This document shows positions 1-33,092 of a stretch of DNA of 64,000 nucleotides, one piece after another (the stretch's first letter is position 1; every line of letters begins with the position of its first letter). Location: sequence record MZ234035.1; one strand, written 5' to 3'. This DNA is from Escherichia phage vB_EcoM-G3F7. Below the pieces are notes generated by a model. It had not been told where the DNA came from. It made no database searches and saw nothing but the letters and a program-made list of their open reading frames with translations. A program made the position numbers and the translations under genes.

Positions 1-1152
1 GAAACAGAAAAATATGTTCAGCAAAGGGCGATGTTTAATGCTACGTCTAAAATAATCGAAATTCAAACTAATGCTGAGCTTCCTCCGGAAAAACGAAATA
101 AGAAAATGCCAGATGTAGGTGCTATTCCTGACATCATGCGCCAAGCATTATCAATTTCATTTGATAGTTACGTTGGTCATGATTGGATGGATGACTACGA
201 AGCACGCTGGCTATCTTATATGAATAAAGCTCGTAAAGTTCCATTTAAACTCAGAATTCTAAACAAAATTACGAAAGGCGGAGCTGAAACTGGAACACTG
301 AACGTTTTAATGGCTGGCGTTAACGTTGGTAAGTCATTAGGTCTGTGTTCATTGGCAGCAGATTATTTGCAGCTCGGACATAATGTTCTTTACATTTCCA
401 TGGAAATGGCAGAAGAAGTCTGTGCTAAGCGTATTGACGCTAACATGCTTGATGTTTCTCTTGATGACATTGATGATGGGCATATTTCTTACGCTGAGTA
501 TAAAGGAAAAATGGAAAAATGGCGTGAGAAATCTACTCTCGGCCGTTTAATCGTTAAACAGTATCCTACTGGTGGAGCAGATGCTAATACATTTCGGTCG
601 CTTTTAAATGAATTAAAGCTCAAGAAGAATTTTGTTCCAACAATCATTATTGTTGACTATCTAGGTATTTGTAAATCTTGCCGCATTAGAGTTTATTCAG
701 AAAATAGTTACACAACTGTTAAAGCCATCGCAGAAGAATTGCGTGCTCTGGCTGTTGAAACTGAAACTGTTCTTTGGACTGCAGCACAGGTTGGTAAACA
801 AGCTTGGGACTCTTCCGATGTTAACATGAGTGATATCGCAGAATCTGCTGGTCTTCCAGCGACAGCTGATTTTATGCTTGCGGTCATTGAAACCGAGGAG
901 TTAGCAGCTGCTGAACAACAACTCATTAAGCAAATCAAATCACGATATGGTGATAAGAATAAATGGAATAAGTTTTTGATGGGTGTTCAAAAAGGAAATC
1001 AGAAATGGGTAGAAATTGAACAAGATTCTACTCCAACTGAAGTGAACGAAGTAGCAGGTTCACAACAGATTCAGGCTGAACAGAATCGCTATCAAAGAAA
1101 CGAATCGACTCGAGCTCAGTTAGATGCTTTGGCGAATGAATTAAAATTTTAG
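1..1152 (+). CDS. 41: Replicative DNA helicase gp41 (DnaB-like), 5'-truncated by window edge
   Basis: Frame open from nt 1; track ORF 31..1152 with P-loop-like GVNVGKS; matches my recollection of T4 gp41 C-terminal ~380 aa; followed by dmd/sp/61 as in T4. Confidence 0.93.
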   Translation, partial: ETEKYVQQRAMFNATSKIIEIQTNAELPPEKRNKKMPDVGAIPDIMRQALSISFDSYVGHDWMDDYEARWLSYMNKARKVPFKLRILNKITKGGAETGTLNVLMAGVNVGKSLGLCSLAADYLQLGHNVLYISMEMAEEVCAKRIDANMLDVSLDDIDDGHISYAEYKGKMEKWREKSTLGRLIVKQYPTGGADANTFRSLLNELKLKKNFVPTIIIVDYLGICKSCRIRVYSENSYTTVKAIAEELRALAVETETVLWTAAQVGKQAWDSSDVNMSDIAESAGLPATADFMLAVIETEELAAAEQQLIKQIKSRYGDKNKWNKFLMGVQKGNQKWVEIEQDSTPTEVNEVAGSQQIQAEQNRYQRNESTRAQLDALANELKF

Positions 1153-1181
1153 TTTACAAGCTGACAAGACTATGGTATAGT
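1152..1181 (+). promoter_or_regulatory. T4-type early promoter (GTTTAC -35, TATAGT -10) upstream of dmd
   Basis: GTTTAC at 1152-1157, 18-nt spacer, TATAGT at 1176-1181, then GGAG SD and ATG 1211. Confidence 0.5.
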
Positions 1182-1210
1182 AGTCTTGTTGGTTAAATGA
1201 GGAGATTGTT

Positions 1211-1393
1211 ATGGAATTGGTAAAGGTAGTTTTTATGGGGTGGTTTAAGAATGAAAGCACGTTTACTAAAGAAACCACAATGATGAAAGATGACGTTCAA
1301 TGGGCTACTACTCAGTATGCTGAAGTTAATAAAGCATTAGTTAAAGCTTTCATTGATGACAAGAAAGTATGTGAAGTGGATTGCCGAGGATAA
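1211..1393 (+). CDS. dmd: Dmd, discriminator of mRNA degradation (antitoxin against host RnlA/LsoA)
   Basis: 60-aa ORF MELVKVVFMGWFKNES...CEVDCRG, near-identical to T4 Dmd as I recall it; position next to gene 41. Confidence 0.88.
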   Translation: MELVKVVFMGWFKNESTFTKETTMMKDDVQWATTQYAEVNKALVKAFIDDKKVCEVDCRG

Positions 1394-1394
1394 T

Positions 1395-1652
1395 ATGCAT
1401 ATTGTTTTATTTAAACCTACTCCGTATAACGTCAGGAAAAATACACAATTCAAAGCACTTATTGCCGATACGTGGGAATTGGTGTTAGATATTCCAGCAG
1501 AAGAAAGTCCTCCATTTGGTCGAGTGGAATTTATTAAGTTTGCTGTTCGCCCTACGAAGCGGCAGATTCGTCAGTGTAAAAGGTATTTTCGTAAGATCGT
1601 TAAGCTAGAGAAACAGTTTGTAACATGTGATTACGCAAAAGTTTTAAAATAA
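1395..1652 (+). CDS. Hypothetical early protein (T4 61.4-like position)
   Basis: Track ORF 1353..1652 starts with TTG inside dmd; in-frame ATG at 1395 lies 4 nt after GAGGA and 2 nt after the dmd stop, so 1395 is preferred. Confidence 0.5.
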   Translation: MHIVLFKPTPYNVRKNTQFKALIADTWELVLDIPAEESPPFGRVEFIKFAVRPTKRQIRQCKRYFRKIVKLEKQFVTCDYAKVLK

Positions 1653-1710
1653 CTGTTTACTTTTATTGGAAATTGAGATACTATAAACATAAACTACTGA
1701 GGAGATTATC

Positions 1711-2004
1711 ATGAAAAAATTTATCTTTGCTACAATTTTTGCTTTAGCTTCTTGTGCTGCTCAGCCTGCTATGGCAGGTTATGATAAAGATTTGTGCGAA
1801 TGGTCTATGACTGCGGATCAGACTGAGGTTGAAACTCAAATTGAAGCAGATATTATGAATATCGTTGAGCGTGATCGTCCTGAAATGAAAGCTGAAGTGC
1901 AAAAACAGCTTAAGTCTGGTGGTGTAATGCAGTATAATTACGTTCTGTATTGTGATAAAAACTTTAATAATAAAAATATCATCGCTGAAGTGGTAGGTGA
2001 ATAA
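1711..2004 (+). CDS. sp: Spackle (Sp), periplasmic protein with signal peptide
   Basis: 97 aa, N-terminal signal peptide MKKFIFATIFALASCAAQPAMA; matches T4 Sp size and sequence as recalled; GGAGA SD. Confidence 0.82.
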   Translation: MKKFIFATIFALASCAAQPAMAGYDKDLCEWSMTADQTEVETQIEADIMNIVERDRPEMKAEVQKQLKSGGVMQYNYVLYCDKNFNNKNIIAEVVGE

Positions 2005-2016
2005 TTAGAGGCTAAT

Positions 2017-2181
2017 ATGAAAACGTTTAAAGAATTTATCAAAGAAGATATGGTCGCTGGAGATTCAGGTGGTAGTCCTGAAAATATCTCTACTGGAACA
2101 ACGTCAGGCGCTGTAGTAAATAAAGGTCCTGAACAGATTCCTAAAAAGAAAAAAGAGGAATCTAAAGAAAAAGAAGAGTAA
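2017..2181 (+). CDS. Hypothetical small Lys/Glu-rich protein (54 aa)
   Basis: ATG 2017 to TAA 2179-2181, hand-translated MKTFKEFIKEDMVAGDSGG...KEESKEKEE; ends 2 nt before the gene 61 ATG. Confidence 0.45.
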   Translation: MKTFKEFIKEDMVAGDSGGSPENISTGTTSGAVVNKGPEQIPKKKKEESKEKEE

Positions 2182-2183
2182 AA

Positions 2184-3212
2184 ATGTCATCAATACCTTG
2201 GATTGATAATGAGTTTGCATACCGTGCATTAGCTCATTTACCTAAATTCACACAAGTAAATAATAGTTCAACTTTTAAATTACGGTTTAGATGCCCAGTT
2301 TGTGGAGATTCAAAAACCGACCAGAATAAAGCCCGTGGATGGTATTATGGTGATAATAATGAAGGAAATATTCATTGTTATAACTGTAACTATCATGCAC
2401 CAATCGGAATATATTTAAAGGAGTTTGAACCTGATTTATATCGTGAGTATATCTTTGAAATAAGAAAAGAAAAAGGTAAAAGTCGTCCAGTAGAAAAACC
2501 TAAAGAACTTCCTAAACAACCTGAGAAGAAAATAATTAAATCTCTTCCGTCATGTGTTAGATTAGATAAACTGGCGGAAGACCATCCAATTATAAAATAT
2601 GTAAAAGCTCGTTGTATTCCAAAGGATAAATGGAAATATCTTTGGTTTACAACCGAATGGCCTAAATTAGTTAATAGCATAGCACCGGGAACATATAAAA
2701 AGGAAATTTCTGAGCCTCGTCTTGTTATTCCAATTTATAATGCTAATGGAAAAGCTGAGTCTTTTCAAGGACGCGCATTAAAGAAAGATGCTCCTCAAAA
2801 ATATATCACCATCAAAGCTTATCCTGAAGCAACAAAAATTTATGGAGTCGAACGAGTTAAAGATGGTGATGTATATGTTCTAGAAGGACCTATAGATTCA
2901 CTTTTTATTGAAAATGGTATAGCTATTACGGGTGGTCAATTAGACCTAGAAGTTGTTCCATTTAAAGATAGACGAGTGTGGGTTTTAGATAATGAACCTC
3001 GTCACCCTGACACTATTAAACGAATGACTAAATTAGTTGATGCAGGAGAAAGGGTTATGTTTTGGGATAAATCTCCCTGGAAATCAAAAGATGTTAATGA
3101 TATGATTAGAAAGGAAGGTGCAACCACTGAACAAATTATGGAATATATGAAAAATAATATTGCCCAGGGGTTAATGGCTAAAATGCGGCTATCTAAATAT
3201 GCTAAGATTTAA
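2184..3212 (+). CDS. 61: DNA primase gp61
   Basis: 342 aa, zinc-ribbon CPVCGDS...CYNC plus TOPRIM-like region; matches T4 gp61 as recalled. Confidence 0.93.
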   Translation: MSSIPWIDNEFAYRALAHLPKFTQVNNSSTFKLRFRCPVCGDSKTDQNKARGWYYGDNNEGNIHCYNCNYHAPIGIYLKEFEPDLYREYIFEIRKEKGKSRPVEKPKELPKQPEKKIIKSLPSCVRLDKLAEDHPIIKYVKARCIPKDKWKYLWFTTEWPKLVNSIAPGTYKKEISEPRLVIPIYNANGKAESFQGRALKKDAPQKYITIKAYPEATKIYGVERVKDGDVYVLEGPIDSLFIENGIAITGGQLDLEVVPFKDRRVWVLDNEPRHPDTIKRMTKLVDAGERVMFWDKSPWKSKDVNDMIRKEGATTEQIMEYMKNNIAQGLMAKMRLSKYAKI

Positions 3213-3409
3213 ATTAACCCAACTAAAGCAAATGCTAAATCTACGAATGTATCAAGAGTAACTACTGGAATACTAACGCCATGAGCAATAGCAACTGGCG
3301 ATAAAACAAAATTCCAAAGTAAAATTCCTATCATAGCAGTAATAGTAAAAGCTATACGTTTCTTATTACCTTTTATGGCATTAACAAGTGCCATTAATTT
3401 TTGTACCAT
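3209..3409 (-). CDS. Hypothetical small membrane protein, antisense to the early gene block
   Basis: 66-aa hydrophobic ORF; ATG at 3409 preceded on the minus strand by AAGGAGG with a 4-nt spacer; its stop overlaps the gene 61 stop tail-to-tail. Confidence 0.4.
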   Translation of the reverse strand: MVQKLMALVNAIKGNKKRIAFTITAMIGILLWNFVLSPVAIAHGVSIPVVTLDTFVDLAFALVGLI

Positions 3410-3421
3410 ATGTCCTCCTTA

Positions 3422-3446
3422 TTGCTTTATATATTTATTGTATAAT
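3422..3446 (+). promoter_or_regulatory. Candidate MotA-dependent middle promoter upstream of gene 56
   Basis: MotA-box-like TTGCTTTA at 3422-3429, 11-nt gap, TATAAT at 3441-3446. Confidence 0.4.
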
Positions 3447-3482
3447 TAATCTACTAACCCATGAATTGAAAGGAAAAATAAC

Positions 3483-3998
3483 ATGCCACATTTCAACGAA
3501 TGTAGTCAACTGATCGAAGGCGCTGATAAAGCTCAAAATGAATATTGGGATATTCTCGGTGATGAAAAAGACCCGCTGCAGGTAATGCTTGATATGCAGA
3601 AATCTTTACAGATTCGTTTAGCAAATGACCGCGAATACTGTTATCATCCAGATAAATTAGAAACTGCCGGTGATGTTGTTTCTTGGATGCGTGAACAAAA
3701 AGACTGTATTGATGATGAATTCCGCGAACTTCTGACTTCTCTTGGTGAAATGTCACGTGGTGAAAAAGATGCATCGGCAGTTTGGAAAAAATGGAAAGCA
3801 CGTTATATTGAAGCGCAAGAAAAACGCATTGATGAAATGTCCCCAGAAGATCAGCTCGAAATTAAATTTGAGCTTGTGGATATATTTCATTTCGTATTAA
3901 ATATGTTTGCTGGCCTTGGAATGAATGCGGAAGAAATCTTTAAACTTTATTATTTGAAAAATAAACATAATTTTGAACGTCAAGATAATGGGTATTAA
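3483..3998 (+). CDS. 56: dCTPase/dCTP pyrophosphatase gp56 (MazG-like)
   Basis: 171 aa MPHFNECSQLIEGADKAQNEYWDILGDEKDPLQVMLDMQ...; near-identical to T4 gp56 as recalled. Confidence 0.93.
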   Translation: MPHFNECSQLIEGADKAQNEYWDILGDEKDPLQVMLDMQKSLQIRLANDREYCYHPDKLETAGDVVSWMREQKDCIDDEFRELLTSLGEMSRGEKDASAVWKKWKARYIEAQEKRIDEMSPEDQLEIKFELVDIFHFVLNMFAGLGMNAEEIFKLYYLKNKHNFERQDNGY

Positions 3999-4662
3999 AC
4001 AAAAATTTTATAGAACATATATCGTAAAAGTTAGGACGCCGAAAGGCGTCTTTTGGTACGCTGGGAAACATGAATCATTTATTGTAAATCCATATGATGA
4101 TAAATATCCGGGGTCAGGCAAAATACTATGGAACATATATCGTAAGTATGGTTTTAATTATAAAATACGTTGGTCAAAATGCCATGGTTCTAGAGAAAAA
4201 TCATATGAAGTTGAACGCGAGCTAATATCTGCATTAAAACGTAAACACCCAGATACTTGCATTAATATTTCTCCTGGTGGTCAGGGTGGAGAAGGAAGAA
4301 AATGGACTGAGCAACAACGATTAGAACATAAACTTAGATTAAACAATCCTGAAACAAAAACTCGGATGAAGAATTCACAACGTATAGCCCAAAATAGAGC
4401 AGAACGAAAAGCTCGGCAATCTGAAGTAATGAAAAAGTTTTATTCGAATGGCGGAAATAAAAAGATTTCAGAAGGAACTTCAAGGGCGCAAAGAAAAGCG
4501 CCGCATTGGCATGAACCGCTTAAAAGCGAAATACATGAGTTATGGGTTTCTTTAGGTAAACCAGCAACAGGCCCGGTTGTAAAGGCGCTTAAAGGAAAAT
4601 ATGATGTAACAAGTTCAGCTCTTAAGAATTTAATTTACTTATTCAGAAAAGAAGATGTATAA
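3973..4662 (+). mobile_element. Free-standing GIY-YIG homing endonuclease (SegF-like position between 56 and soc)
   Basis: 229-aa ORF with GIY-YIG-like motifs (TYIVKV...WYAGKH; NISPGGQGGEGRKW); overlaps 3' end of gene 56; alternative ATG at 3988. Confidence 0.6.
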
Positions 4663-4665
4663 ATA
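4658..4665 (+). promoter_or_regulatory. T4 late promoter TATAAATA upstream of soc
   Basis: Exact TATAAATA overlapping the stop of the upstream ORF, about 30 nt before soc ATG. Confidence 0.55.
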
Positions 4666-4695
4666 ATCATGTAATTTAAATAAAAGGAGAATTAC

Positions 4696-4941
4696 ATGGC
4701 TAGTACTCGCGGTTATGTTAATATTAAAACATTTGAGCAGAAATTAGATGGAAATAAGAAAATTGAAGGAAAGGAAATTTCTGTAGCTTTCCCTCTTTAT
4801 TCTGACGTTCACAAAATTTCTGGTGCTCATTACCAGACGTTCCCTTCAGAAAAAGCAGCATATACTACTGTATATGAAGAAAATCAGCGTACTGAATGGA
4901 TTGCTGCAAACGAAGATTTGTGGAAAGTAACTGGTGGTTAA
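4696..4941 (+). CDS. soc: Small outer capsid protein Soc
   Basis: 81-codon ORF MASTRGYVNIKTFEQKLDGNKKIEGKEISVAFPLYSDVHKISGAHYQTFPSEKAAY...; matches T4 Soc as recalled. Confidence 0.93.
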   Translation: MASTRGYVNIKTFEQKLDGNKKIEGKEISVAFPLYSDVHKISGAHYQTFPSEKAAYTTVYEENQRTEWIAANEDLWKVTGG

Positions 4942-4947
4942 TAATTC

Positions 4948-4973
4948 AAGGACTCCTTCGGGAGTCCTTTTTT
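4948..4973 (+). terminator. Rho-independent terminator after soc
   Basis: aaGGACTCC-TTCG-GGAGTCCtt stem-loop with UUCG loop followed by T-run; same hairpin recurs at 58550-58574. Confidence 0.6.
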
Positions 4974-4983
4974 CATTTAAATG

Positions 4984-5013
4984 GTTTACTTTCCAAAATG
5001 AGTATGGTATAAT
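4984..5013 (+). promoter_or_regulatory. T4-type early promoter
   Basis: GTTTAC 4984-4989, 18-nt spacer, TGGTATAAT with TATAAT at 5008-5013. Confidence 0.5.
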
Positions 5014-5039
5014 AGAATTATCTTATAGAGGAGAGCGCT

Positions 5040-5246
5040 ATGTTAAATCGTTGGATTAAACCGAATGAAGATTTAGATATTATCATTTCACGACACGTAA
5101 TGAAGAAATATGAATTGCAACCATGGTCTACAGAAGTTGTTGTGCATTCATTTATGATGTACGCAGATGGTTCTGTTGAATTTAATGCAGAGATTCGATA
5201 CGATTATGGCGAGAAGCAAGTTGAATTCAAAAGAGGCTTTTTGTAA
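5040..5246 (+). CDS. Hypothetical protein (68 aa)
   Basis: ATG with GAGGAGAG SD; follows early promoter. Confidence 0.5.
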   Translation: MLNRWIKPNEDLDIIISRHVMKKYELQPWSTEVVVHSFMMYADGSVEFNAEIRYDYGEKQVEFKRGFL

Positions 5247-5587
5247 TGTTTATCTTTAATTGGTTTAAAAATTTCTTTACGGATTTTTTCTCTACAGTTC
5301 CTGGGGAAGGTGTAGTTCCTATTTCAAATGACGACCTTCCTTTAACTGTAGTTGAGTATGTTTATATGGGAGATGGAACAGTAGAAGCAGTCACTATGAC
5401 TTATGAAGAAGCCCAAGAATATTATAAAAATCCTTGGCGCTGGTCAGTACCTACTACATCATCTAATGCACAGAATACACAGTCTAGTTCTGATTCATAT
5501 GATACTAATGTTCCTGTTCATGTATGGACGGGCGATTCATGTGGAAGTTCTTGTGATTCTAGTTGTTCATCTACATCTTGTGATTGA
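5246..5587 (+). CDS. Hypothetical protein with Ser/Cys-rich C-terminal tail
   Basis: 113 aa; TAATG start overlap; C-terminus [18 protein letters not shown]. Confidence 0.5.
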
Positions 5588-5595
5588 GGAAAATT

Positions 5596-6081
5596 ATGGA
5601 AGCAATTTTGTTTGAAATGTCTATCAATAGTATTAGTATGGCGTTTGTCAAGGATGTTCCAATTACCGTAGCAGTAATGATTGATAAAAGATATGACAAT
5701 GACATGTATCTAGTAGAAGATTTTATTTCAATGCCAGTTCCAGAAGATGTTGAAATAAAACTTAAAAAGATCGGAATTATTGAAACTGTACAAAATTCTC
5801 CATTTATGGCAATTCAAGCATTTACTAAATCTAACTATATTGATGTTGCTGAAGCATACTATAATAATAAACCGTTATCCTTCTATTCATATGATTCAAT
5901 ATATGACTGGAAAATTGATAAGGGAAATAAATTTATAATTACGGACGAAAGTGCGCTATCATATTTTATTACCTCTTTATGGAATAATTTAAATCCTAAT
6001 TTGCTAAAAATTCATGAATTTGACGGTGTCCATACTATTGTTTTAGGTAAAATAAATGAAAGCTCTCAAGAAGATTCTTGA
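5596..6081 (+). CDS. Hypothetical protein (161 aa from ATG 5596; possible Mrh by size only)
   Basis: Track ORF 5584..6081 begins with TTG; ATG at 5596 follows GAGGAAAA. Confidence 0.45.
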
Positions 6082-6259
6082 ATGGTTCAATAGACCAAAC
6101 TCAATGTACATTGATGATGGTTGGGTTGAACAAGCAAATAAAGAAATGCAGAACGAATCAGAAGAATGGATGAAATCAATGATTAGTGCTGAGAAAGAAA
6201 AGAAATTAGAACGCTCAGCGCTTAAATTAATGAGAGACATCTATGGGGATAAATCGTGA
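6056..6259 (+). CDS. Hypothetical protein (67 aa)
   Basis: Track ORF overlapping end of previous gene; charged/coiled-coil-like composition. Confidence 0.4.
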
Positions 6260-6267
6260 ACAAAGAT

Positions 6268-6420
6268 ATGACGTTAGAAGAGGCTAAAGCAAAAGCAAAT
6301 GAAGCATTGGATTTGCTTCTTAAAATTGGCAGTAAAATGATGGAAGAAAATGAGAAATATATCCAGGAAAACAAAATTCCTGACGGCCCATTAGTAGGCA
6401 AGAGGAAATCACATGATTGA
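6268..6420 (+). CDS. Hypothetical small protein (50 aa)
   Basis: Hand-translated [50 protein letters not shown]; stop overlaps next ATG (ATGATTGA). Confidence 0.3.
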
Positions 6421-6883
6421 AGTAGCAAAACATTATTCAATAGAATTTATGTCTAAAGAAGGTAAATCAGTAAATACACTTGACAAAAAGTGCTCGTTAA
6501 TTATTCCTTTAGCAGAAAATCCGGATATTTTAATTAAAGATATAAAAGAAAGAAAATACCCAGAAAATGTTATTCTAATTATAAAGCATACTGAAGATAT
6601 TTTGCAGAATACTGATTCACCGTTTTCTTCTTCTGAAGCTTTAACTATTAAAGGCTATAAAAGAGCTCATGAATATGGTCTTTTTGACCTGTTTGAAGAC
6701 GATAAAGTTAAATTAGCGAGTCAACCTTCTAAAAGTAAAACATTCATTATTGAAGATATTAAAGATATAAATGCATTCGTTAAGATGGTCTGGGCTCATT
6801 TTGATGTTGGACTACGCTGGAGAATGTCCGAAGAAGAAAGAAAGATTATTGAAGCTAATCGTCAATTTGGTTTTTATCGCTAG
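6413..6883 (+). CDS. Hypothetical protein (156 aa)
   Basis: Track ORF with ATG start; no recognisable motif. Confidence 0.5.
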
Positions 6884-6891
6884 GAATTAAT

Positions 6892-7074
6892 ATGGATTTA
6901 TTTGAGATGTTAGAAGATAATCATTCTACGAATATCCAGAATGATTCTAGTGATTATAAGAAAGAGTACCGTATAGTATTACAGAATTATGGAATTGAAG
7001 CCCCAGATGCTCTTCTAGAAGAACTAGCTTCATACCATCTTGACCCTCCGCCTTGGGCTCCTTGGGCAAAATAA
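6892..7074 (+). CDS. Hypothetical protein (60 aa)
   Basis: Track ORF with ATG start. Confidence 0.4.
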   Translation: MDLFEMLEDNHSTNIQNDSSDYKKEYRIVLQNYGIEAPDALLEELASYHLDPPPWAPWAK

Positions 7075-7085
7075 TTCAAAAAGTT

Positions 7086-7115
7086 GTTTACTTTCCTTTC
7101 TAACGATGATATGAT
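7086..7115 (+). promoter_or_regulatory. T4-type early promoter upstream of modB
   Basis: GTTTAC 7086-7091, 18-nt spacer, TATGAT at 7110-7115. Confidence 0.4.
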
Positions 7116-7141
7116 AGCTTCTGAAGTATACGGAGGCTATC

Positions 7142-7765
7142 ATGATTATTAATCTTGCAGATGTTGAACAGTTATCTATAAAAGCTGAAAGCGTTGATTT
7201 TCAATATGATATGTATAAAAAGGTCTGTGAAAAATTTACTGACTTTGAGCAGTCTGTTCTTTGGCAATGTATGGAAGCTAAAAAGAATGAAGAGCTTCAT
7301 CGGCAATTGAATAAAATCATTAAAAAGCATTTAACTAAATCGCCTTATCAGTTATATCGTGGTATATCAAAATCGACAAAAGAACTTATTAAAGATTTAC
7401 AAGTTGGAGAAGTGTTTTCAACGAACAGGGTAGATTCATTTACTACTAGTTTGCATACAGCGTGTTCTTTTTCTTATGCTGAATATTTTACTAAAATAAT
7501 ACTTCGTTTAAAAACTAATAAAGCTTTTAATTATTCTGACCATATCAGCGATATTATACTTTCTTCTCCTAATACTGAGTTTAAGTACACGTATGAAGAT
7601 ACTGATGGGCTAGATTCAGAGCGTACTGATAACTTAATGATGATTGTGCGTGAACAAGAATGGATGATTCCAATTGGAAAGTATAGAATAACTTCTATTT
7701 CAAAAGAAAAATTACACGATTCATTTGGAACATTTAAAGTTTATGATATTGAGGTAGTTGAATGA
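7142..7765 (+). CDS. modB: ADP-ribosyltransferase ModB
   Basis: 207 aa; ART-like motifs (YRG, S-T-x, EQEWMIP); paralog of the next ORF; size and synteny as in T4. Confidence 0.7.
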   Translation: MIINLADVEQLSIKAESVDFQYDMYKKVCEKFTDFEQSVLWQCMEAKKNEELHRQLNKIIKKHLTKSPYQLYRGISKSTKELIKDLQVGEVFSTNRVDSFTTSLHTACSFSYAEYFTKIILRLKTNKAFNYSDHISDIILSSPNTEFKYTYEDTDGLDSERTDNLMMIVREQEWMIPIGKYRITSISKEKLHDSFGTFKVYDIEVVE

Positions 7766-8364
7766 AATACTCAGTAATGCAACTAAAAGATTTTAAAATA
7801 AAATCAATGGATGCATCGGTGCGTGCTTCTATTCGTGAAGAATTACTTTCTGAAGGGTTTAATTTATCTGAAATTGAACTTTTAATTCATTGTATTACTA
7901 ATAAGCCAGATGACCATACTTGGTTAAATGAAATAATCAAATCTCGTTTGGTTCCAAACGATAAACCTCTTTGGAGAGGTGTTCCAGCTGAGACTAAACA
8001 AGTATTAAATCAAGGAATTGATATTATTACATTTGATAAAGTCGTATCAGCTTCATATGATAAAAATATAGCTCTACATTTTGCTTCCGGTTTAGAGTAT
8101 AACACACAAGTTATTTTTGAATTCAAAGCTCCTATGGTATTCAATTTCCAGGAGTATGCTATAAAAGCTCTGCGCTGTAAAGAATACAATCCAAACTTTA
8201 AGTTTCCGGATAGCCATCGTTATCGTAATATGGAATTAGTTTCAGATGAACAAGAAGTAATGATACCAGCTGGAAGTGTATTTAGAATTGCAGATAGATA
8301 TGAGTATAAAAAGTATTCAACATACACTATCTATACTCTTGATTTTGAAGGATTTAATCTATAA
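7762..8364 (+). CDS. modA: ADP-ribosyltransferase ModA
   Basis: 200 aa; WRG, SAS, EQEVMIP motifs; size and synteny as in T4. Confidence 0.7.
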   Translation: MKYSVMQLKDFKIKSMDASVRASIREELLSEGFNLSEIELLIHCITNKPDDHTWLNEIIKSRLVPNDKPLWRGVPAETKQVLNQGIDIITFDKVVSASYDKNIALHFASGLEYNTQVIFEFKAPMVFNFQEYAIKALRCKEYNPNFKFPDSHRYRNMELVSDEQEVMIPAGSVFRIADRYEYKKYSTYTIYTLDFEGFNL

Positions 8365-8420
8365 TGGAAGGACTTAGATTCATTATACCATGAAATTTTT
8401 GAAGCATTTTTCATAAAATT

Positions 8421-8450
8421 GTTTACAAGCCAAGGTAAAAATGTTATAGT
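8421..8450 (+). promoter_or_regulatory. T4-type early promoter upstream of srd
   Basis: GTTTAC 8421-8426, spacer, TATAGT 8445-8450. Confidence 0.45.
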
Positions 8451-8485
8451 ATAGTAGTCAATCGTCCGTAAGATGTGAGAAAAAT

Positions 8486-9232
8486 ATGAAACTGTCTAAT
8501 AATCAAATTCGTAAAATTAAACGTCGTTTAGAGCACACTCAGGCATCTGCAAAAAGACGTTCTAAAGATTTTAACTTAGACTTCAATTACATTAAGAATA
8601 TTTTAGATCAAAAAGTTTGTGCCTATTCAGGAGAACCTTTTGATAATCGTATTGAAGGAGAGAAATTATCATTAGAACGTTTTGATAATAACATTGGATA
8701 CATTAAAGGGAATGTTATTGCAGTAAAGAAAAAGTATAATACATTTCGTTCTGATTATACTTTAGAAGAGTTGATTGAAAAACGGGATTTATTTGCTTTG
8801 CGAATTGGTCGTTCATCTGCGAAAAAAGTTCATAAACTAAATTTAGATGAAAAGAAATGGGCTAAAATCAAAAAGACTTATAATCAAATTAAAGCTATAC
8901 AGAAAAAGCGTGAAAATCGAATTGAACACATTTCTCAGCTTTCTAAATCAAAACAGACCTCTGACATTAAGCTAAGAATTATAGCACTTAAAGCTCGTAT
9001 TGATGGTTCTCGCATAGCAGAAGGCGCTGAAGTTGTTAAACTGAACGTTCTTCTTAAAGGCTCGGATTGGAAAATTGTGAAAAAGTTGTCAGAAGCAGAA
9101 ATGCAATATGATGTGTGTGATAAAATTATTCAAGGTGTAGAGCGGTATCAAAACTTGTCTTTTATTGATAAACTTAAACTGAAAAGAGGATACCCGCTAA
9201 ATTGTTCAATTTTTAAACTTATCCGAGGATAA
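8486..9232 (+). CDS. srd: Srd-like protein (sigma decoy), assigned by size and synteny
   Basis: 248 aa between modA and dda as in T4; no motif independently recognised. Confidence 0.55.
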   Translation: MKLSNNQIRKIKRRLEHTQASAKRRSKDFNLDFNYIKNILDQKVCAYSGEPFDNRIEGEKLSLERFDNNIGYIKGNVIAVKKKYNTFRSDYTLEELIEKRDLFALRIGRSSAKKVHKLNLDEKKWAKIKKTYNQIKAIQKKRENRIEHISQLSKSKQTSDIKLRIIALKARIDGSRIAEGAEVVKLNVLLKGSDWKIVKKLSEAEMQYDVCDKIIQGVERYQNLSFIDKLKLKRGYPLNCSIFKLIRG

Positions 9233-9233
9233 T

Positions 9234-9545
9234 ATGGTTTATGTATATGCGATAGTTTACCGAGACAAAGACGGATTTACGGCGCCAGTTCCACTTGATG
9301 AACATCGTCCTGCTGTGTTTTTTGAAAGAGAGATTGCTGATAGAGTTTTTACTACTCTCAAAGACCAATATAAACTAGCTTTAGGTATGGGAATTCCAAG
9401 ACTAGTTGAGACTCCACGCAAGTTTTGGTTTAATAAAATAGAAGTTAAACATGTTAAGCCTGATGTAGATACACAAAGATTATATCAACGAATTCTAGAT
9501 ACTGGGCGTATTGTTAGTATTCCAATTGCAGGGACTTTCCGATGA
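9234..9545 (+). CDS. Hypothetical protein (dda.1 position)
   Basis: 103 aa, ATG start, immediately upstream of dda. Confidence 0.5.
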   Translation: MVYVYAIVYRDKDGFTAPVPLDEHRPAVFFEREIADRVFTTLKDQYKLALGMGIPRLVETPRKFWFNKIEVKHVKPDVDTQRLYQRILDTGRIVSIPIAGTFR

Positions 9546-10861
9546 CATTTGATGATTTGACAGAAGGCCAGAAAAATGCCTTTAACATCGTTATGAGGGC
9601 TATTAAAGAAAAGAAACATCATGTAACTATTAATGGACCTGCTGGTACTGGTAAGACTACTCTTACTAAGTTCATCATTGAAGCTTTAATATCTACGGGT
9701 GAAACTGGTATTATTTTAGCAGCTCCTACACATGCAGCTAAAAAGATTCTTTCAAAACTGTCGGGGAAAGAAGCGAGTACTATTCACAGTATTCTTAAAA
9801 TTAACCCAGTTACGTATGAAGAAAACGTTCTTTTTGAACAGAAGGAAGTACCAGATTTAGCTAAATGCAGGGTATTAATCTGCGACGAAGCGTCAATGTA
9901 TGATAGAAAGCTATTTAAAATTCTGCTTTCAACTATTCCACCTTGGTGTACTATAATTGGAATAGGTGATAATAAGCAAATTAGACCTGTTGATCCAGGA
10001 GAAAATACTGCTTATATCAGTCCATTCTTTACACATAAAGATTTTTATCAGTGTGAACTCACTGAAGTTAAACGCAGTAATGCTCCTATTATTGATGTAG
10101 CTACTGACGTTCGTAACGGTAAGTGGATTTATGATAAAGTTGTTGACGGGCATGGAGTACGTGGATTTACTGGTGATACCGCTTTACGCGATTTTATGGT
10201 AAATTATTTTTCAATCGTCAAATCTCTAGATGATTTGTTTGAAAATCGCGTAATGGCATTTACGAATAAATCTGTTGACAAGTTAAATAGCATTATTCGT
10301 AAAAAGATTTTTGAAACTGATAAAGATTTTATTGTCGGTGAAATTATTGTAATGCAGGAACCATTAATTAAAACATATAAAATTGATGGAAAGCCTGTGT
10401 CAGAAATTATTTTTAATAACGGACAATTAGTTCGTATTATAGAAGCAGAGTATACATCAACATTTGTTAAAGCTCGTGGTGTTTCTGGAGAATACTTAAT
10501 TCGTCATTGGGATTTAACAGTAGAAACTTACGGCGATGATGAATATTATCGTGAAAAGATTAAAATAATTTCATCTGATGAAGAGCTATATAAGTTTAAC
10601 CTATTTTTAGGTAAAACAGCAGAAACTTATAAAAACTGGAATAAGGGTGGAAAAGCTCCATGGAGTGATTTTTGGGATGCTAAATCACAGTTTAGTAAAG
10701 TGAAAGCACTTCCTGCATCAACATTCCATAAAGCGCAGGGTATGTCTGTAGACCGTGCTTTCATCTATACACCTTGTATTCATTATGCAGATGCTGAATT
10801 GGCTCAACAACTTCTTTATGTTGGTGTTACCCGTGGTCGTTATGACGTATTTTATGTGTGA
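9542..10861 (+). CDS. dda: Dda 5'-3' DNA helicase (SF1B)
   Basis: 439 aa; Walker A GPAGTGKTT; matches T4 Dda as recalled. Confidence 0.93.
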   Translation: MTFDDLTEGQKNAFNIVMRAIKEKKHHVTINGPAGTGKTTLTKFIIEALISTGETGIILAAPTHAAKKILSKLSGKEASTIHSILKINPVTYEENVLFEQKEVPDLAKCRVLICDEASMYDRKLFKILLSTIPPWCTIIGIGDNKQIRPVDPGENTAYISPFFTHKDFYQCELTEVKRSNAPIIDVATDVRNGKWIYDKVVDGHGVRGFTGDTALRDFMVNYFSIVKSLDDLFENRVMAFTNKSVDKLNSIIRKKIFETDKDFIVGEIIVMQEPLIKTYKIDGKPVSEIIFNNGQLVRIIEAEYTSTFVKARGVSGEYLIRHWDLTVETYGDDEYYREKIKIISSDEELYKFNLFLGKTAETYKNWNKGGKAPWSDFWDAKSQFSKVKALPASTFHKAQGMSVDRAFIYTPCIHYADAELAQQLLYVGVTRGRYDVFYV

Positions 10862-10867
10862 GGATAT

Positions 10868-11128
10868 ATGATTAACATCAATTCAAAATATTTAAATCGT
10901 CTAATAGATTGTATAAGGAAGCATACTAATAAGCAAGATAATCTCGATGTTATGGTAACAGGAGCTGAGCTCCTTCATAAGCTTTATCTTATAAGTGATA
11001 CTATATTAGCAATTAAACGAATTGAAAAACAATCATATCACAGTAATACAGATACGGTAATTACACTAGATGAAAGTGTCTGTAAATTACTAATTAAATT
11101 TGAGGAAGCTATTCGTGGAAATAACTAA
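10868..11128 (+). CDS. Hypothetical small protein (86 aa)
   Basis: ATG with GAGGA SD. Confidence 0.45.
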   Translation: MININSKYLNRLIDCIRKHTNKQDNLDVMVTGAELLHKLYLISDTILAIKRIEKQSYHSNTDTVITLDESVCKLLIKFEEAIRGNN

Positions 11129-15646: not shown

Positions 15647-17464
15647 ATGATTAAGAATGAAATTAAAATTCTGAGCGATATTGAACATATCAAAAAGCGT
15701 AGCGGCATGTACATTGGCTCTTCTGCTAATGAAATGCATGAGCGCTTTCTGTTTGGTAAATGGGAAAGTGTTCAGTATGTACCTGGTCTTGTTAAGCTTA
15801 TTGATGAAATTATCGATAACTCAGTAGATGAAGGTATTCGTACTAAGTTTAAATTCGCAAATAAAATTAATGTTACTATTAAAAACAATCAAGTAACAGT
15901 TGAAGATAACGGTCGTGGTATTCCACAAGCGATGGTTAAAACACCTACCGGTGAAGAAATTCCTGGTCCAGTTGCTGCATGGACTATTCCAAAAGCGGGT
16001 GGTAACTTCGGTGATGATAAAGAACGCGTCACCGGCGGTATGAATGGTGTTGGTTCTAGTTTGACAAACATTTTTTCTGTGATGTTTGTCGGTGAAACTG
16101 GTGATGGTCAAAATAATATTGTAGTTCGTTGTTCAAATGGCATGGAAAATAAATCATGGGAAGATATTCCTGGAAAATGGAAAGGAACTCGTGTTACTTT
16201 CATTCCAGATTTTATGTCATTTGAAACTAATGAATTATCTCAAGTTTATCTTGACATTACACTAGATCGTCTCCAGACACTTGCTGTTGTTTATCCTGAT
16301 ATTCAATTTACCTTTAATGGTAAAAAGGTTCAGGGCAATTTTAAGAAATATGCACGACAGTATGATGAACATGCTATCGTTCAAGAACAAGAAAATTGTT
16401 CTATTGCGGTTGGTCGTTCACCCGACGGTTTTCGTCAATTAACATACGTCAATAACATTCATACTAAGAATGGTGGCCATCACATTGACTGTGTTATGGA
16501 TGATATTTGTGAAGACCTTATTCCACAAATCAAACGCAAGTTCAAAATTGATGTAACTAAAGCACGCGTTAAAGAATGTTTGACTATCGTTATGTTTGTT
16601 CGTGATATGAAAAACATGCGATTTGATTCTCAAACTAAAGAGCGTTTGACTTCTCCATTTGGTGAAATCCGTAGTCATATTCAGCTTGATGCTAAAAAGA
16701 TTTCACGTGCTATTTTGAATAATGAAGCAATTCTGATGCCAATTATTGAAGCTGCTTTGGCTCGTAAATTGGCGGCAGAAAAAGCAGCAGAAACTAAAGC
16801 AGCTAAAAAGGCATCTAAAGCTAAGGTTCATAAACATATCAAAGCGAATCTTTGTGGTAAAGATGCTGATACTACATTGTTCTTGACTGAGGGTGATTCT
16901 GCTATCGGATATCTTATTGATGTTCGTAATAAAGAACTTCATGGTGGTTATCCATTACGTGGTAAAGTTCTCAACAGTTGGGGTATGTCATATGCTGATA
17001 TGCTTAAAAACAAAGAACTATTTGATATTTGCGCAATCACTGGATTAGTTCTTGGTGAAAAAGCTGAAAACTTGAATTATCATAATATTGCTATTATGAC
17101 TGATGCTGACCATGATGGTCTAGGAAGCATTTATCCTTCTCTGCTTGGATTTTTTAGTAATTGGCCAGAACTGTTTGAGCAAGGAAGAATTCGCTTCGTC
17201 AAAACTCCTGTAATCATCGCTCAGGTCGGTAAAAAACAAGAATGGTTTTATACAGTCGCTGAATATGAGAGTGCCAAAGATGCTCTACCTAAACATAGCA
17301 TCCGTTATATTAAAGGACTTGGCTCTTTGGAAAAATCTGAATATCGTGAGATGATTCAAAACCCAGTATATGATGTTGTTAAACTTCCTGAGAACTGGAA
17401 AGAGCTTTTTGAAATGCTCATGGGAGATAATGCTGACCTTCGTAAAGAATGGATGAGCCAGTAG
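15647..17464 (+). CDS. 39: DNA topoisomerase II large (ATPase, GyrB-like) subunit, uninterrupted 39+60-type fusion
   Basis: 605 aa from ATG 15647 (track ORF starts at GTG 15644); GHKL ATPase plus TOPRIM region in a single ORF. Confidence 0.9.
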   Translation: MIKNEIKILSDIEHIKKRSGMYIGSSANEMHERFLFGKWESVQYVPGLVKLIDEIIDNSVDEGIRTKFKFANKINVTIKNNQVTVEDNGRGIPQAMVKTPTGEEIPGPVAAWTIPKAGGNFGDDKERVTGGMNGVGSSLTNIFSVMFVGETGDGQNNIVVRCSNGMENKSWEDIPGKWKGTRVTFIPDFMSFETNELSQVYLDITLDRLQTLAVVYPDIQFTFNGKKVQGNFKKYARQYDEHAIVQEQENCSIAVGRSPDGFRQLTYVNNIHTKNGGHHIDCVMDDICEDLIPQIKRKFKIDVTKARVKECLTIVMFVRDMKNMRFDSQTKERLTSPFGEIRSHIQLDAKKISRAILNNEAILMPIIEAALARKLAAEKAAETKAAKKASKAKVHKHIKANLCGKDADTTLFLTEGDSAIGYLIDVRNKELHGGYPLRGKVLNSWGMSYADMLKNKELFDICAITGLVLGEKAENLNYHNIAIMTDADHDGLGSIYPSLLGFFSNWPELFEQGRIRFVKTPVIIAQVGKKQEWFYTVAEYESAKDALPKHSIRYIKGLGSLEKSEYREMIQNPVYDVVKLPENWKELFEMLMGDNADLRKEWMSQ

Positions 17465-30143: not shown

Positions 30144-33092
30144 TTAGAATTTAAAATATTTACTAATTTTGCGAGCAATTTTAGTAAAGAGAGGCGTTTT
30201 CAATTCTTTAATTTCTTCACTCATTTCCTGAATAGCCTTAATTAAAAGAGCATTCACAGCAGAGTTAGAAATTGTCAGAACATCAGATCCATCAACTTCA
30301 ACTTTAGATACAGCTTCCGGTAATTCCTTTTCAAGGTCCTGAGCAATAATACCAACTTCACGTTTAATAACACTACGGTCTTTAATAGACTTAACTTTAT
30401 CGTAAATATAAACTTTCAGTCGGCAAACTTTTTCGACTGCTCCATATTCTAATTCTTCTTTATTAATCTTGAGACGGGAGTCAGAACGAATATACACATC
30501 GCTAAAGCTACCATTTCCTGGTGTATAAAAGAATCCATCATGATGGAATTCAAACACAGCTTGTGGGTGTCCAGCATCAGGAGAAGCCTCCGTGGATCCG
30601 ACACGAATGATTGCTTGCCCCCACTGTGATGGAATACGACGCATACCAAAGTCAACAGCGGTGCTATATCCTTGATTGGTTATAACGCTTCTTGCTTTAA
30701 GAATAGGATAATAACTATCTTGACCAACATAACCATGATCAACGAATAATGGAGCTTCTACTCGCCATTGGTTGCCCCAATCACCCGGTTGTCTAGCAAT
30801 CCATCCAGAACCGTTAATGTGTACACGGTCACGGTTAACGTTAACCATTGCGGTATTTTGCGGGTTTAACGCAATCTCACCATTGTTTGTGATATGTACT
30901 GCCGCCTGAGAAGCATAGCTATAAAATGCTAGCGAATTATCAGCACCACCCTTGCCAATATACCAGTTACCAGTCCCGTCTATGTCACCGCGAATATGCA
31001 AAGAATTACTAGCAGTTGTTGATAATACAATAGAATCATTAGGTGCATTGATTGTTAACCGACCTGTCATCGTATCACCGCCTTTACCTAGGCGAGTATT
31101 CAAGGCAGCATCTAAATTGGTTGCATCGTTGTATTTCTTCCAGATTGAACCAGCAATGTTACCATCAGTGTTCAAGAATGCTGCGCCAGCATAAACTCGG
31201 CTTTGTGACATGAATCGGCCAGACGGCAAGAAACGCCATATAGCTAATTCAGTGGCTGTAGTTCCAGTAGCGGATAAATCACCCTGAGCAACGATACGAT
31301 ATTCTGAACTAGCAATATCCATACCAGAAGCCATAGTAATATTTGTTACAGTGTTTTTCTGTTTAACAATTGGCGCAAACTGGTTTTTATTTGAATCGTC
31401 AATAGCCTGATATAATGGCGCAATGGTAGTATTCTGATTTGCGTAAGTATTAGAACCAGAACCGCTAGCAGGGGCTTGAATATATGCTCCTGGAGCAAGT
31501 GAAATTTTCTGATTAGCACCAAGATTAACAGCAGCAGTGATATTCAGCAATCCCCTAAAGTTTTGTTGAGCAGTCCAAGTGTGTGATCCGTCTTCAAGAA
31601 CAACACGACGACAAGTATTAGTCCTACTTCCTGGATTACCAGCGATACGAACAACGAAATAACGATAGTTCGCCTGAGATACAGTACCGCGCCACACTTG
31701 AACAGTTCGACCCGTTCCGGTATGTTCGCTAGGACCGACAGAAAACATAACCAGGTTTCCATCAATCGTGCCCCAATCCATATTTGCTGGCATATTCTTT
31801 ATTTTGTTCAAAGGAACACTAAACATACTACCAGGGACAAAATCAAAGGTTTGCCAATCTAACTCCGCTAATTGAGCTTTAATACCACCCATACCCAAAG
31901 TAATTGGCAGAGAATAAGATGTATATACTTCGTTCCATGCACCCCACGCACCACCAGTATATGCACGCTCAAAAATACGATCGCGAGTAGTTGCACCCGT
32001 TCCTGCGGTAGTGAAACGTTGGAAAATAGCACCGCCAGAAGCACGCTGTTTAACTTCCAGCAAACCAACAATAACAGTCGGCAAACCTTCACCTGTAGGA
32101 CAGTTAATAACGGCATCAGTGCCTAAAATATTATATAACCCGGGAGTTTTAAAATCATTCAGATCTCCATCATAGAAAGTCGCTGGTGTGCCATGACCAA
32201 CCTGCTTCCATTCCTCCCACTTAGGTGCACTAGCATCCCATGCAGCAGCGAGACAACGAGTATAAACCATACCCATGCGGGTAGTATAACGCTGAGTTCT
32301 CGTGTATAAACCACCTTCAAATATTTCTAAAAATCCTTGTGCGGCTGATCCTTCTTCTGGATAATGGCGATCAAATGATGCGATTGCGCTTGAACTGTTT
32401 CGCCATAAGCCACAATGTTCTAATTTTCCCAAGCTATCAAGGTCAATCGTTTGTGAAAGTGGACGAGTTGACGCTTGAACATTACGCCACACACCCCATG
32501 GACCATCGACGCCATTCCATTTAGCAGATAAGGAACGAATATAGACGTTACCAGATCTTACAGTATAACGCTGAGTGCCAGCAAATTGGCCGGCCACAAA
32601 CACTTCTAGTACACCTACGGCATTTTCTTCTGGGAATTTATTTGCTGGTTGCGCATTTGTTGAAGTAGATTTCGACCAAACACCAAGATATTCTTCAATG
32701 GGCCCATACGTATCTAAATTAGCATCAGTAGGTAATTCGCCATTATTTTTTATAAATGTTGTGCTATTGACATTTATGTCAGATGGAGTTAAGGTAATGT
32801 CCTTTGACCCATCAAAAGATATACCATTAATTTTCCTAGGTGTTTGCAATTTAGTAGCTGTGCTAGAATTTCCAATTAAAGTTCCAGTTATATTTTCTGT
32901 AACCTCTAAAGACCCATTTATAGTTCCTCCATATTTTAAACCTAATTCTATAACACTACCTGAGTCATCTTTTGTGAAAATTGTTTTATCTTTTAAGTTT
33001 ATAGCCAATTCACCTTCGGCTAATACTGAAGCAGCAGGACGTTGACCTGCAGTTTTGCTTCTTTTAAATTGTATTTGTTTTAAAGTAGCCAT
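30144..33092 (-). CDS. 37: Long tail fibre distal subunit gp37 (T2-type)
   Basis: 982 aa; N-terminus [13 protein letters not shown] conserved with T4 gp37, remainder divergent from T4 as I recall it. Confidence 0.88.

Follow-up and report, generated by a model that had tools for sequence, protein, structure and literature searches.

An intact and probably active orthologue of the T4 homing endonuclease gene segF, with a linked gene 56 haplotype, in Escherichia phage vB_EcoM-G3F7

The open reading frame between gene 56 and soc of Escherichia phage vB_EcoM-G3F7 (MZ234035.1) very probably encodes an intact, active orthologue of the T4 protein SegF, a free-standing homing endonuclease; we put the probability of this reading at about 94%. 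The feature is already known: the ORF is the well-studied selfish gene segF of T4 in its usual place, and GenBank already holds the identical protein under the name homing endonuclease. For T4, the gene and its family, the target, the regulation and the part played in marker exclusion have been in the literature for more than 20 years, so the ORF carries little weight as a discovery. Part of the practical value of the analysis lies in the surrounding DNA, which reads as a clean natural footprint of co-conversion, with borders set to the base, outside the species to which T4 belongs. Here we describe the identity, fold and domain make-up of the protein, the sporadic distribution of its gene, the boundaries of the insertion and the gene 56 haplotype that is linked to it. 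The analysis covers a 64,000-nt stretch of the phage DNA, referred to as the window, and follows up an initial annotation of it, which was correct in its essentials and was partly supported in its interpretation.

Bases 3300-5100 of the window are 100% identical to phage vB_EcoM-CHD94UKE2 (MZ234031, Tequatrovirus gee4498), in which position 32056 corresponds to window position 1, and about 96% identical to phage T4. Gene 61 is followed by a 66-aa ORF on the minus strand, gene 56, the segF ORF and soc, in that order, at the following coordinates.

2184-3212: gene 61 (primase)
3209-3409, minus strand: 66-aa ORF, with a 4-nt overlap with the end of gene 61
3483..3998, plus strand: gene 56, dCTPase/dUTPase, 171 aa (ORF list; Pfam dUTPase_2; annotation of T4 and MZ234031)
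3973..4662, plus strand: mechanically called ORF with a TTG start, 229 aa
3988..4662, plus strand: segF CDS, 224 codons and a TAA stop (4660-4662), identical to T4 SegF at 222 of 224 residues
4696..4941, plus strand: soc, small outer capsid protein (Pfam Soc, E 1e-54; features of X01416)

The initial annotation described a 229-aa ORF that overlaps the end of gene 56. The overlap stands, at 11 nt, while the start and the length had to be revised to ATG 3988 and 224 aa. The upstream TTG at 3973 was dropped as the start in favour of this ATG on the basis of the T4 annotation, the CDS of MZ234031, which runs over 3988..4662 in window coordinates exactly as in our call, and the N-termini of 12 orthologues, all of which begin with M-[G/D/A]-IK at ATG 3988. 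The same 11-nt overlap with gene 56 is also given for T4 segF (PMC2988022). Downstream, soc has a Shine-Dalgarno sequence, AAGGAG, at 4684-4689 and is followed by a strong terminator with a 9-bp stem at 4948-4969, which was found in the terminator scan and is also present in X01416. Next to this terminator, at 4985-5013, comes a good sigma-70 promoter, TTTACT-17-TATAAT with a TG upstream of it, and the T4 counterparts of the two elements are t15.02 and P(E) 14.98.

The match to T4 SegF extends over the full length of the protein (222 of 224 residues), which places the ORF far beyond chance, and the locus is that of T4, between 56 and soc and overlapping 56. The earlier claim of a free-standing GIY-YIG endonuclease gene in the position of T4 segF, the old gene 69/69*, is borne out by this near-identity and by the same neighbours. 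The two residue differences, G2/D2 and D37/N37, both fall at variable alignment columns. At the codon level there are 14 differences from T4 segF, 12 of them synonymous and two non-synonymous. Five other segF-carrying phages show 0-8 nt differences with zero amino-acid change, and the segF of a sixth, EC128, has 2 nt differences with one amino-acid change. This substitution pattern points to purifying selection on segF.

In the PHROGs collection SegF is assigned to phrog_314, "homing endonuclease" (2e-23). The family is small, comprising 13 clusters at 90% identity in an index of 5.8 billion proteins; among 1.84 billion proteins, 6 representatives at 50% identity were found at E<=1e-30 and 1,029 more distant ones at E<=1e-3. 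Distant orthologues, 63-83% identical, occupy the same site beside the dCTPase gene in Klebsiella, Enterobacter and other Escherichia phages. As an observation on database labels, SegF is called 'oligopeptide ABC transporter OppA' in the EC128 and FJ1 records, and the modA.2-modA.4 homologues of the window (6268-7074) are labelled 'molybdenum ABC transporter ModA', apparently through a collision of gene names.

The protein is divided into two regions.

4000..4287, plus strand: N-terminal GIY-YIG nuclease domain, about aa 5-100
4306..4656, plus strand: helical linker with NUMOD3-like repeats and C-terminal helical DNA-binding region (predicted), aa ~107-223

The secondary-structure elements of the N-terminal region (beta7-17, beta20-30, alpha45-54, beta58-66 and alpha69-86) have the beta-beta-alpha-beta-alpha arrangement of the I-TevI catalytic domain, as found by structure comparison. 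Its key residues are Y11, Y24, G26, E76 and N93. The motifs are degenerate, with R-T-Y11 in place of 'GIY' and Y24-A-G26 in place of 'YIG'; the Tyr of 'GIY' and the Tyr-x-Gly of 'YIG' are nevertheless on adjacent strands, with a Glu and an Asn downstream. Across 82 homologues, Y24, G26, Y40, G42 and E76 are invariant, and Y11, S43, G44, K53, G55, N93, G97 and G98 are nearly invariant. Profile-profile comparison by hhalign aligned residues 24-133 of SegF, represented by a profile of 13 orthologues, with T4 SegA at a probability of 91% (E 1e-6), and SegA itself matches Pfam GIY-YIG at 3e-9. The family profile was also aligned to I-TevI alone; this alignment is weak (hhalign probability 12%) and was used for the residue register only, in which Y11 pairs with Y6, Y24 with Y17, G26 with G19, E76 with E75 and N93 with N90. 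In I-TevI, Y6 and Y17 are the motif tyrosines, E75 is the catalytic Glu and N90 is a structural Asn. Structure and profile-profile comparison, transitive Pfam hits and the conserved catalytic residues together place the modelled N-terminal domain in the GIY-YIG fold.

A direct search told a different story. No Pfam family, GIY-YIG (PF01541) and SegE_GIY-YIG (PF19835) included, matched the whole protein at E<=1 or its N-terminal half alone at E<=10. The initial annotation had proposed to give up the GIY-YIG assignment if no such profile matched, and this is literally what happened, with no PF01541 match at E<=10, yet that test is too strict. Among 81 HMMER homologues, the GIY-YIG profile matches 5, the SegE_GIY-YIG profile 6 and NUMOD3 13, so the two nuclease profiles cover the SegF subfamily poorly. 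In the Seg group, a missing Pfam match is thus unsafe ground for rejecting the GIY-YIG assignment. The C-terminal half alone gave no Pfam match at E<=10, nothing relevant to SegF was found in NCBIfam, and no nuclease was found among PDB sequences by phmmer and hmmsearch with the single protein and the 13- and 82-sequence profiles. Foldseek returned no match with either of the two SegF structure models; the first model, built from 13 orthologues, was poor (pLDDT 59), and it was set aside together with its Foldseek search, which is meaningless.

The failure of the standard GIY-YIG profile is also what one would see if the ORF were a decaying or domesticated endonuclease remnant that no longer cuts and survives only through its tight position between an essential gene and the soc promoter. 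The same holds for the conserved arginine at the start of helix 1, R27 of I-TevI, of which no counterpart was found: in the weak I-TevI alignment the opposite region is an insertion or gap, and the candidates K27, H28 and K45 are none of them invariant. Embedding beside promoters has been argued to favour the retention of such genes (PMC2988022), and some phages keep the T4-type gene 56 allele after the loss of segF, as the life cycle of homing endonuclease genes predicts. However, the reading frame is of full length, substitutions are overwhelmingly synonymous and Y11, Y24, G26, E76 and N93 are conserved. In addition, only two residues, both at variable columns, differ from the T4 enzyme, which is classed as active with gene 56 as its target (PMC2988022). 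We consider a dead remnant very unlikely, and segF is a real gene that is almost certainly active.

Over its C-terminal ~115 residues SegF shares homology with the C-terminal half of MobD, an HNH endonuclease of T4, as detected by hhalign (96%, E 2e-9; 99%, E 5e-18 with a deeper profile) and by BLASTP (E 6e-6). A review of the T4 mobile elements uses the wording "hybrid endonuclease segF" (PMC2988022), and the combination of a GIY-YIG N-terminus with a MobD-type C-terminus supplies the sense of that phrase.

The comparison with T-even phages that lack the ORF, which had been proposed as a check, delimits the insertion. The type phage of the same species, G4498, and phage U115 are both without segF and have soc directly after gene 56. 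The window is 96-97% identical to both phages on either flank, for G4498 over 1-3474 and over 4658-10936, while in gene 56 the identity to G4498 and U115 is 78-79% (78.8% for G4498) and 3999-4657 is missing from G4498. Three segments can be distinguished from left to right.

3606..3998, plus strand: T4-type 3' part of gene 56 (~390 bp), the left part of the segF-linked block (informative-site maps)
3999..4657, plus strand: segF-specific DNA, 659 nt, absent from G4498 and U115, which carry 30 unrelated nt
4658..4665, plus strand: TATAAATA, late-promoter box of soc (exact sequence; present in segF-less phages; P(L) 15.32 of X01416)

In G4498 and U115 the 30 unrelated nt run from the gene 56 stop to TATAAATAATCATG...; the window and the two phages become homologous again exactly at 4658, the T of TATAAATA. 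At an identity of at least 95%, segF DNA is present in 45 of 50,697 phage records; gene 56 homologues are present in more than 1,100. The gene is not part of an intron or intein, lies between two genes and is present or absent at a single locus among close relatives. By location and by this presence and absence, segF can be classed as a free-standing (intronless) homing endonuclease gene.

The right border coincides with the promoter of the next gene. As noted earlier, the stop of segF overlaps an exact late promoter of soc, and we confirmed this: TATAAATA at 4658-4665 contains the segF stop TAA (4660-4662) and is 31 nt upstream of the soc ATG at 4696. The 8-mer occurs 9 times in the window against 9.2 copies expected by chance; support for the promoter therefore comes from its position, its conservation and the T4 annotation. 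The box is exact and is kept in phages with and without segF, and the T4 promoter P(L) 15.32 of the 1984 record X01416 maps to 4659-4670. By these marks, TATAAATA at 4658-4665 probably coincides with the soc late promoter. Because the box is present in segF-less phages and homology resumes at 4658, the box is resident soc DNA that was not brought by segF. The segF insertion ends flush at TATAAATA and borrows the TAA of the box as its stop codon.

The left side of the insertion extends into gene 56. Informative sites reveal that gene 56 is chimeric, with 3478-3605 identical to G4498 and 3606-3998 T4-like. In six other segF-carrying phages of several Tequatrovirus species the T4-type block starts at about 3629, and the sequence to the left of it is a variable mosaic. 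When the 3' 344 nt of gene 56 were compared across the phage collection, 50 records were at least 95% identical, none fell at 90-95%, 17 at 80-90% and 1,045 at 60-80%. The T4-type 3' allele is accompanied by segF in 45 of its 50 records, and all 45 segF records are among those 50. Linkage of the T4-type allele with segF is thus found almost always, and is not absolute. The exceptions are five records representing four phages (PD112, CE1, HMD-9 and CJY920), which have the T4-type allele and no segF. Their identity is 96-97% across the gene 56 region and 98-99% in the 3' 344 nt, and their homology to the window stops at or near the gene 56 stop, after which a different soc region or allele follows. 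In HMD-9 the first 11 nt of segF survive, PD112 has the segF-less form over the final ~13 nt of its gene 56, and PD112 and CE1 have two small ORFs together with a different soc allele. Such T4-type alleles without segF are presumably resistant and are to be expected as homing endonuclease genes pass through their life cycle. With a switch in gene 56 near 3606, the same block in six further phages and a right border at 4658, the segF-linked gene 56 block is best read as the footprint of co-conversion, as distinct from an observed event.

T4 SegF was reportedly studied by Belle, Landthaler and Shub in 2002, who are said to have found that it prefers the T2 gene 56 allele, rather than being unable to cut the T4 allele. 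SegF has been reported to cause the exclusion of T2 gene 56. Its target is gene 56 in phages without segF (PMC2988022). Two further elements bear on how the gene would be expressed.

3421..3446, plus strand: MotA-dependent middle promoter (predicted), with mot box ATTGCTT at 3421-3427 and -10 element TATAAT at 3441-3446
4033..4054, plus strand: GC-rich hairpin followed by a short T run, with stems 4033-4040/4045-4052 and loop GAAA

The predicted promoter maps base for base onto the mot box and -10 element of P(M) 16.53 in the T4 record X01416 and is the presumed source of the 56-segF transcript. The hairpin at 4033-4052 has a folding energy of -15.8 kcal/mol (z = -3.2) and is the 't 15.94' of X01416; it corresponds to the intrinsic terminator reported for the 5' end of segF, which would limit segF expression. 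T4 segF has been described as a promoter-less cassette that uses upstream promoters and is down-regulated by the overlap and the internal terminator (PMC2988022). The sigma-70 promoter scan gave 10 matches compared with 8.1 in shuffled sequence; since there is no excess, no promoter for segF itself is claimed. An Rfam search of 3200-5100 yielded sub-threshold chance matches only.

For the cleavage specificity of SegF and the homing event we infer from the published work on the T4 enzyme. The protein combines a GIY-YIG nuclease domain, a helical NUMOD3-like linker and a MobD-type helical DNA-binding region. Having no promoter of its own, segF would be co-transcribed with gene 56 from upstream early and middle promoters, and three features would restrict its translation: the 11-nt overlap, the absence of a good Shine-Dalgarno sequence and the internal terminator hairpin. 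Upon co-infection with a segF-less relative, SegF would cut the gene 56 allele of the relative, and the break would be repaired by recombination with the segF-carrying genome as the template. In this process the recipient would acquire segF together with the diverged 3' stretch of gene 56 next to it, a case of intronless homing accompanied by co-conversion. SegF presumably cuts the gene 56 allele of its own phage poorly. The tight linkage of segF with a strongly diverged 3' gene 56 allele gives indirect support to cleavage of the segF-less alleles.

The initial annotation also gave the T4 replication origin oriA as reported in the 56-soc interval. The T4 feature maps to the 5' end of gene 56.

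~3505, plus strand: equivalent of the T4 oriA point (AF158101:16763; rep_origin feature, coordinates moved via alignment)

This point lies 22 nt inside gene 56 and ~480 nt before segF, beyond the segF-linked block; around it the gene 56 of the window phage has the resident (G4498) sequence type, as opposed to that of T4. The promoter at 3421-3446 is likewise outside the block, so the origin determinants as annotated in T4 fall outside the element. A note in AF158101 gives the 56/segF transcript as the proposed oriA primer RNA of T4. We also observed that the T4 palindrome t16.39, a putative terminator beside oriA with perfect 8-bp arms in T4, is reduced to about 5 bp in the window (3573-3602), where the right arm is TGCAGAAA and not TGCAGCGG.

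These positions bear on the proposal that mobility, promoter and origin functions are joined in one element. In favour of such a composite module, in which the nuclease gene would have arrived with a late promoter of its own and possibly with origin sequences, are the location of the segF stop within TATAAATA and the nearby origin. However, the segF-less G4498 and U115 have TATAAATA and the complete soc leader at that very site, homology to these phages begins exactly at the box, and the 5' end of gene 56, where oriA is annotated, has resident sequence of the G4498 type. The combined element did not hold up, with the promoter resident in segF-less phages and oriA (~3505) outside the segF-linked block, and we give the composite module next to no chance of being right.

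The association of segF with an origin has a history in the databases. Under the title "gene 69 spanning an origin of replication", record X01416 of 1984 contains a gene 69 of 1,179 nt and an internal 69* of 675 nt. When X01416 is aligned to the window, one A is missing near 3969, and this missing base fuses gene 56 and segF into a 392-aa 'gene 69'; the 69* ORF is today's segF. The fused ORF of 1984 accounts for the lasting database labels "DNA replication protein" and "spans oriA"; the former is the name of SegF in records such as those of Lv5cm, 236Ecol005PP and 215Ecol030PP. Another reading takes the protein for 'gp69', a DNA replication protein acting at oriA as proposed in the 1980s. The T4 records X01416, K03113 and M30001 do describe it as a replication protein, with the wording 'spanning an origin' or 'in origin A', several modern records still name it 'DNA replication protein', and oriA is within about 0.5 kb of segF. 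We regard this role as extremely unlikely: a single missing base created the 392-aa 'gene 69', the fold of the protein is that of a nuclease, most close relatives lack the gene and replicate all the same, and the origin annotation is in gene 56 outside the segF-linked block. Nothing in the sequence supports an origin function tied to segF, and the reading of the ORF as a homing endonuclease gene is the one we retain.

Among the T4 origins, oriA is unusual in that it fires late and depends on the recombinase UvsX (PMC3016281). An unlikely, though conceivable, reading is that 'oriA' would owe some or all of its activity to recombination-dependent replication, for which SegF would create a hot spot by cutting the phage's own gene 56 at a low level. 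The late, UvsX-dependent firing, taken together with the allele preference that SegF reportedly has, leaves room for it. If this were true, segF-less phages would be without the oriA peak. Among the papers searched for a link between oriA and SegF, none mentioned both.

The site just upstream of gene 56 (window 3410-3482) is a second hypervariable site, at which the window phage has nothing. T4 carries dam there, an 899-bp difference (9124-10022 of the T4 sequence compared), G4498 has a gene for a 216-aa MobD-like HNH/NUMOD3 endonuclease (5344-5985 of the sequence compared), and U115 has dam preceded by a 186-aa ORF (4592-5931 of the sequence compared). With variable sites on both sides, gene 56 is flanked by two alternative insertion sites for homing endonucleases. 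The 216-aa HNH protein of G4498 is 35% identical to T4 MobD (E 2e-35). We considered whether it specifically shares the DNA-binding module of SegF, which would have suggested a common target; the likeness is at the family level only (BLASTP E 0.33), and the idea was dropped. The 186-aa ORF of U115 (4592-5149) has a weak, sub-threshold Pfam likeness to the restriction endonucleases DpnII (E 0.0045) and BanI. The dam product is a GATC methylase, and DpnII also recognises GATC; the ORF could be a remnant or a partner of a restriction-modification pair.

Two other observations concern the surrounding genes. The 66-aa ORF between genes 61 and 56 (3209-3409, minus strand) matches phrog_2024 of PHROGs, function unknown (E 2e-30), is named "putative membrane protein" in the records of relatives and is kept in G4498, U115 and others. 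Further away, the topoisomerase large subunit (window 15647-17464) is annotated as a single 605-aa ORF. If this gene is split in T4 into genes 39 and 60, with mobA nearby, the window phage would be without the T4-specific interruption of its topoisomerase gene.

Compared with known systems, the closest is T4 SegF itself (gene 69*, AAD42517), which is 99% identical, of equal length and at the same site between 56 and soc. The 11-nt overlap, the internal hairpin and the stop codon within the soc late-promoter box are all common to both phages; the genes differ by two substitutions (G2 for D2 and D37 for N37 in the window phage) and 12 silent changes. Unlike T4, the window phage has a G4498-type backbone, lacks dam upstream and has non-T4 sequence in the first ~125 nt of gene 56. 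T4 MobD and the MobD-like protein of G4498 are, like SegF, encoded by free-standing endonuclease genes of T-even phages, and their nuclease domain is HNH whereas that of SegF is GIY-YIG. I-TevI and the other T4 Seg enzymes (SegA-E and SegG) are GIY-YIG homing endonucleases; SegF is too diverged for Pfam GIY-YIG. SegF also differs from these enzymes in an insertion of ~15 residues between the YIG strand and helix 1, and its C-terminal region is not of the I-TevI or SegA type.
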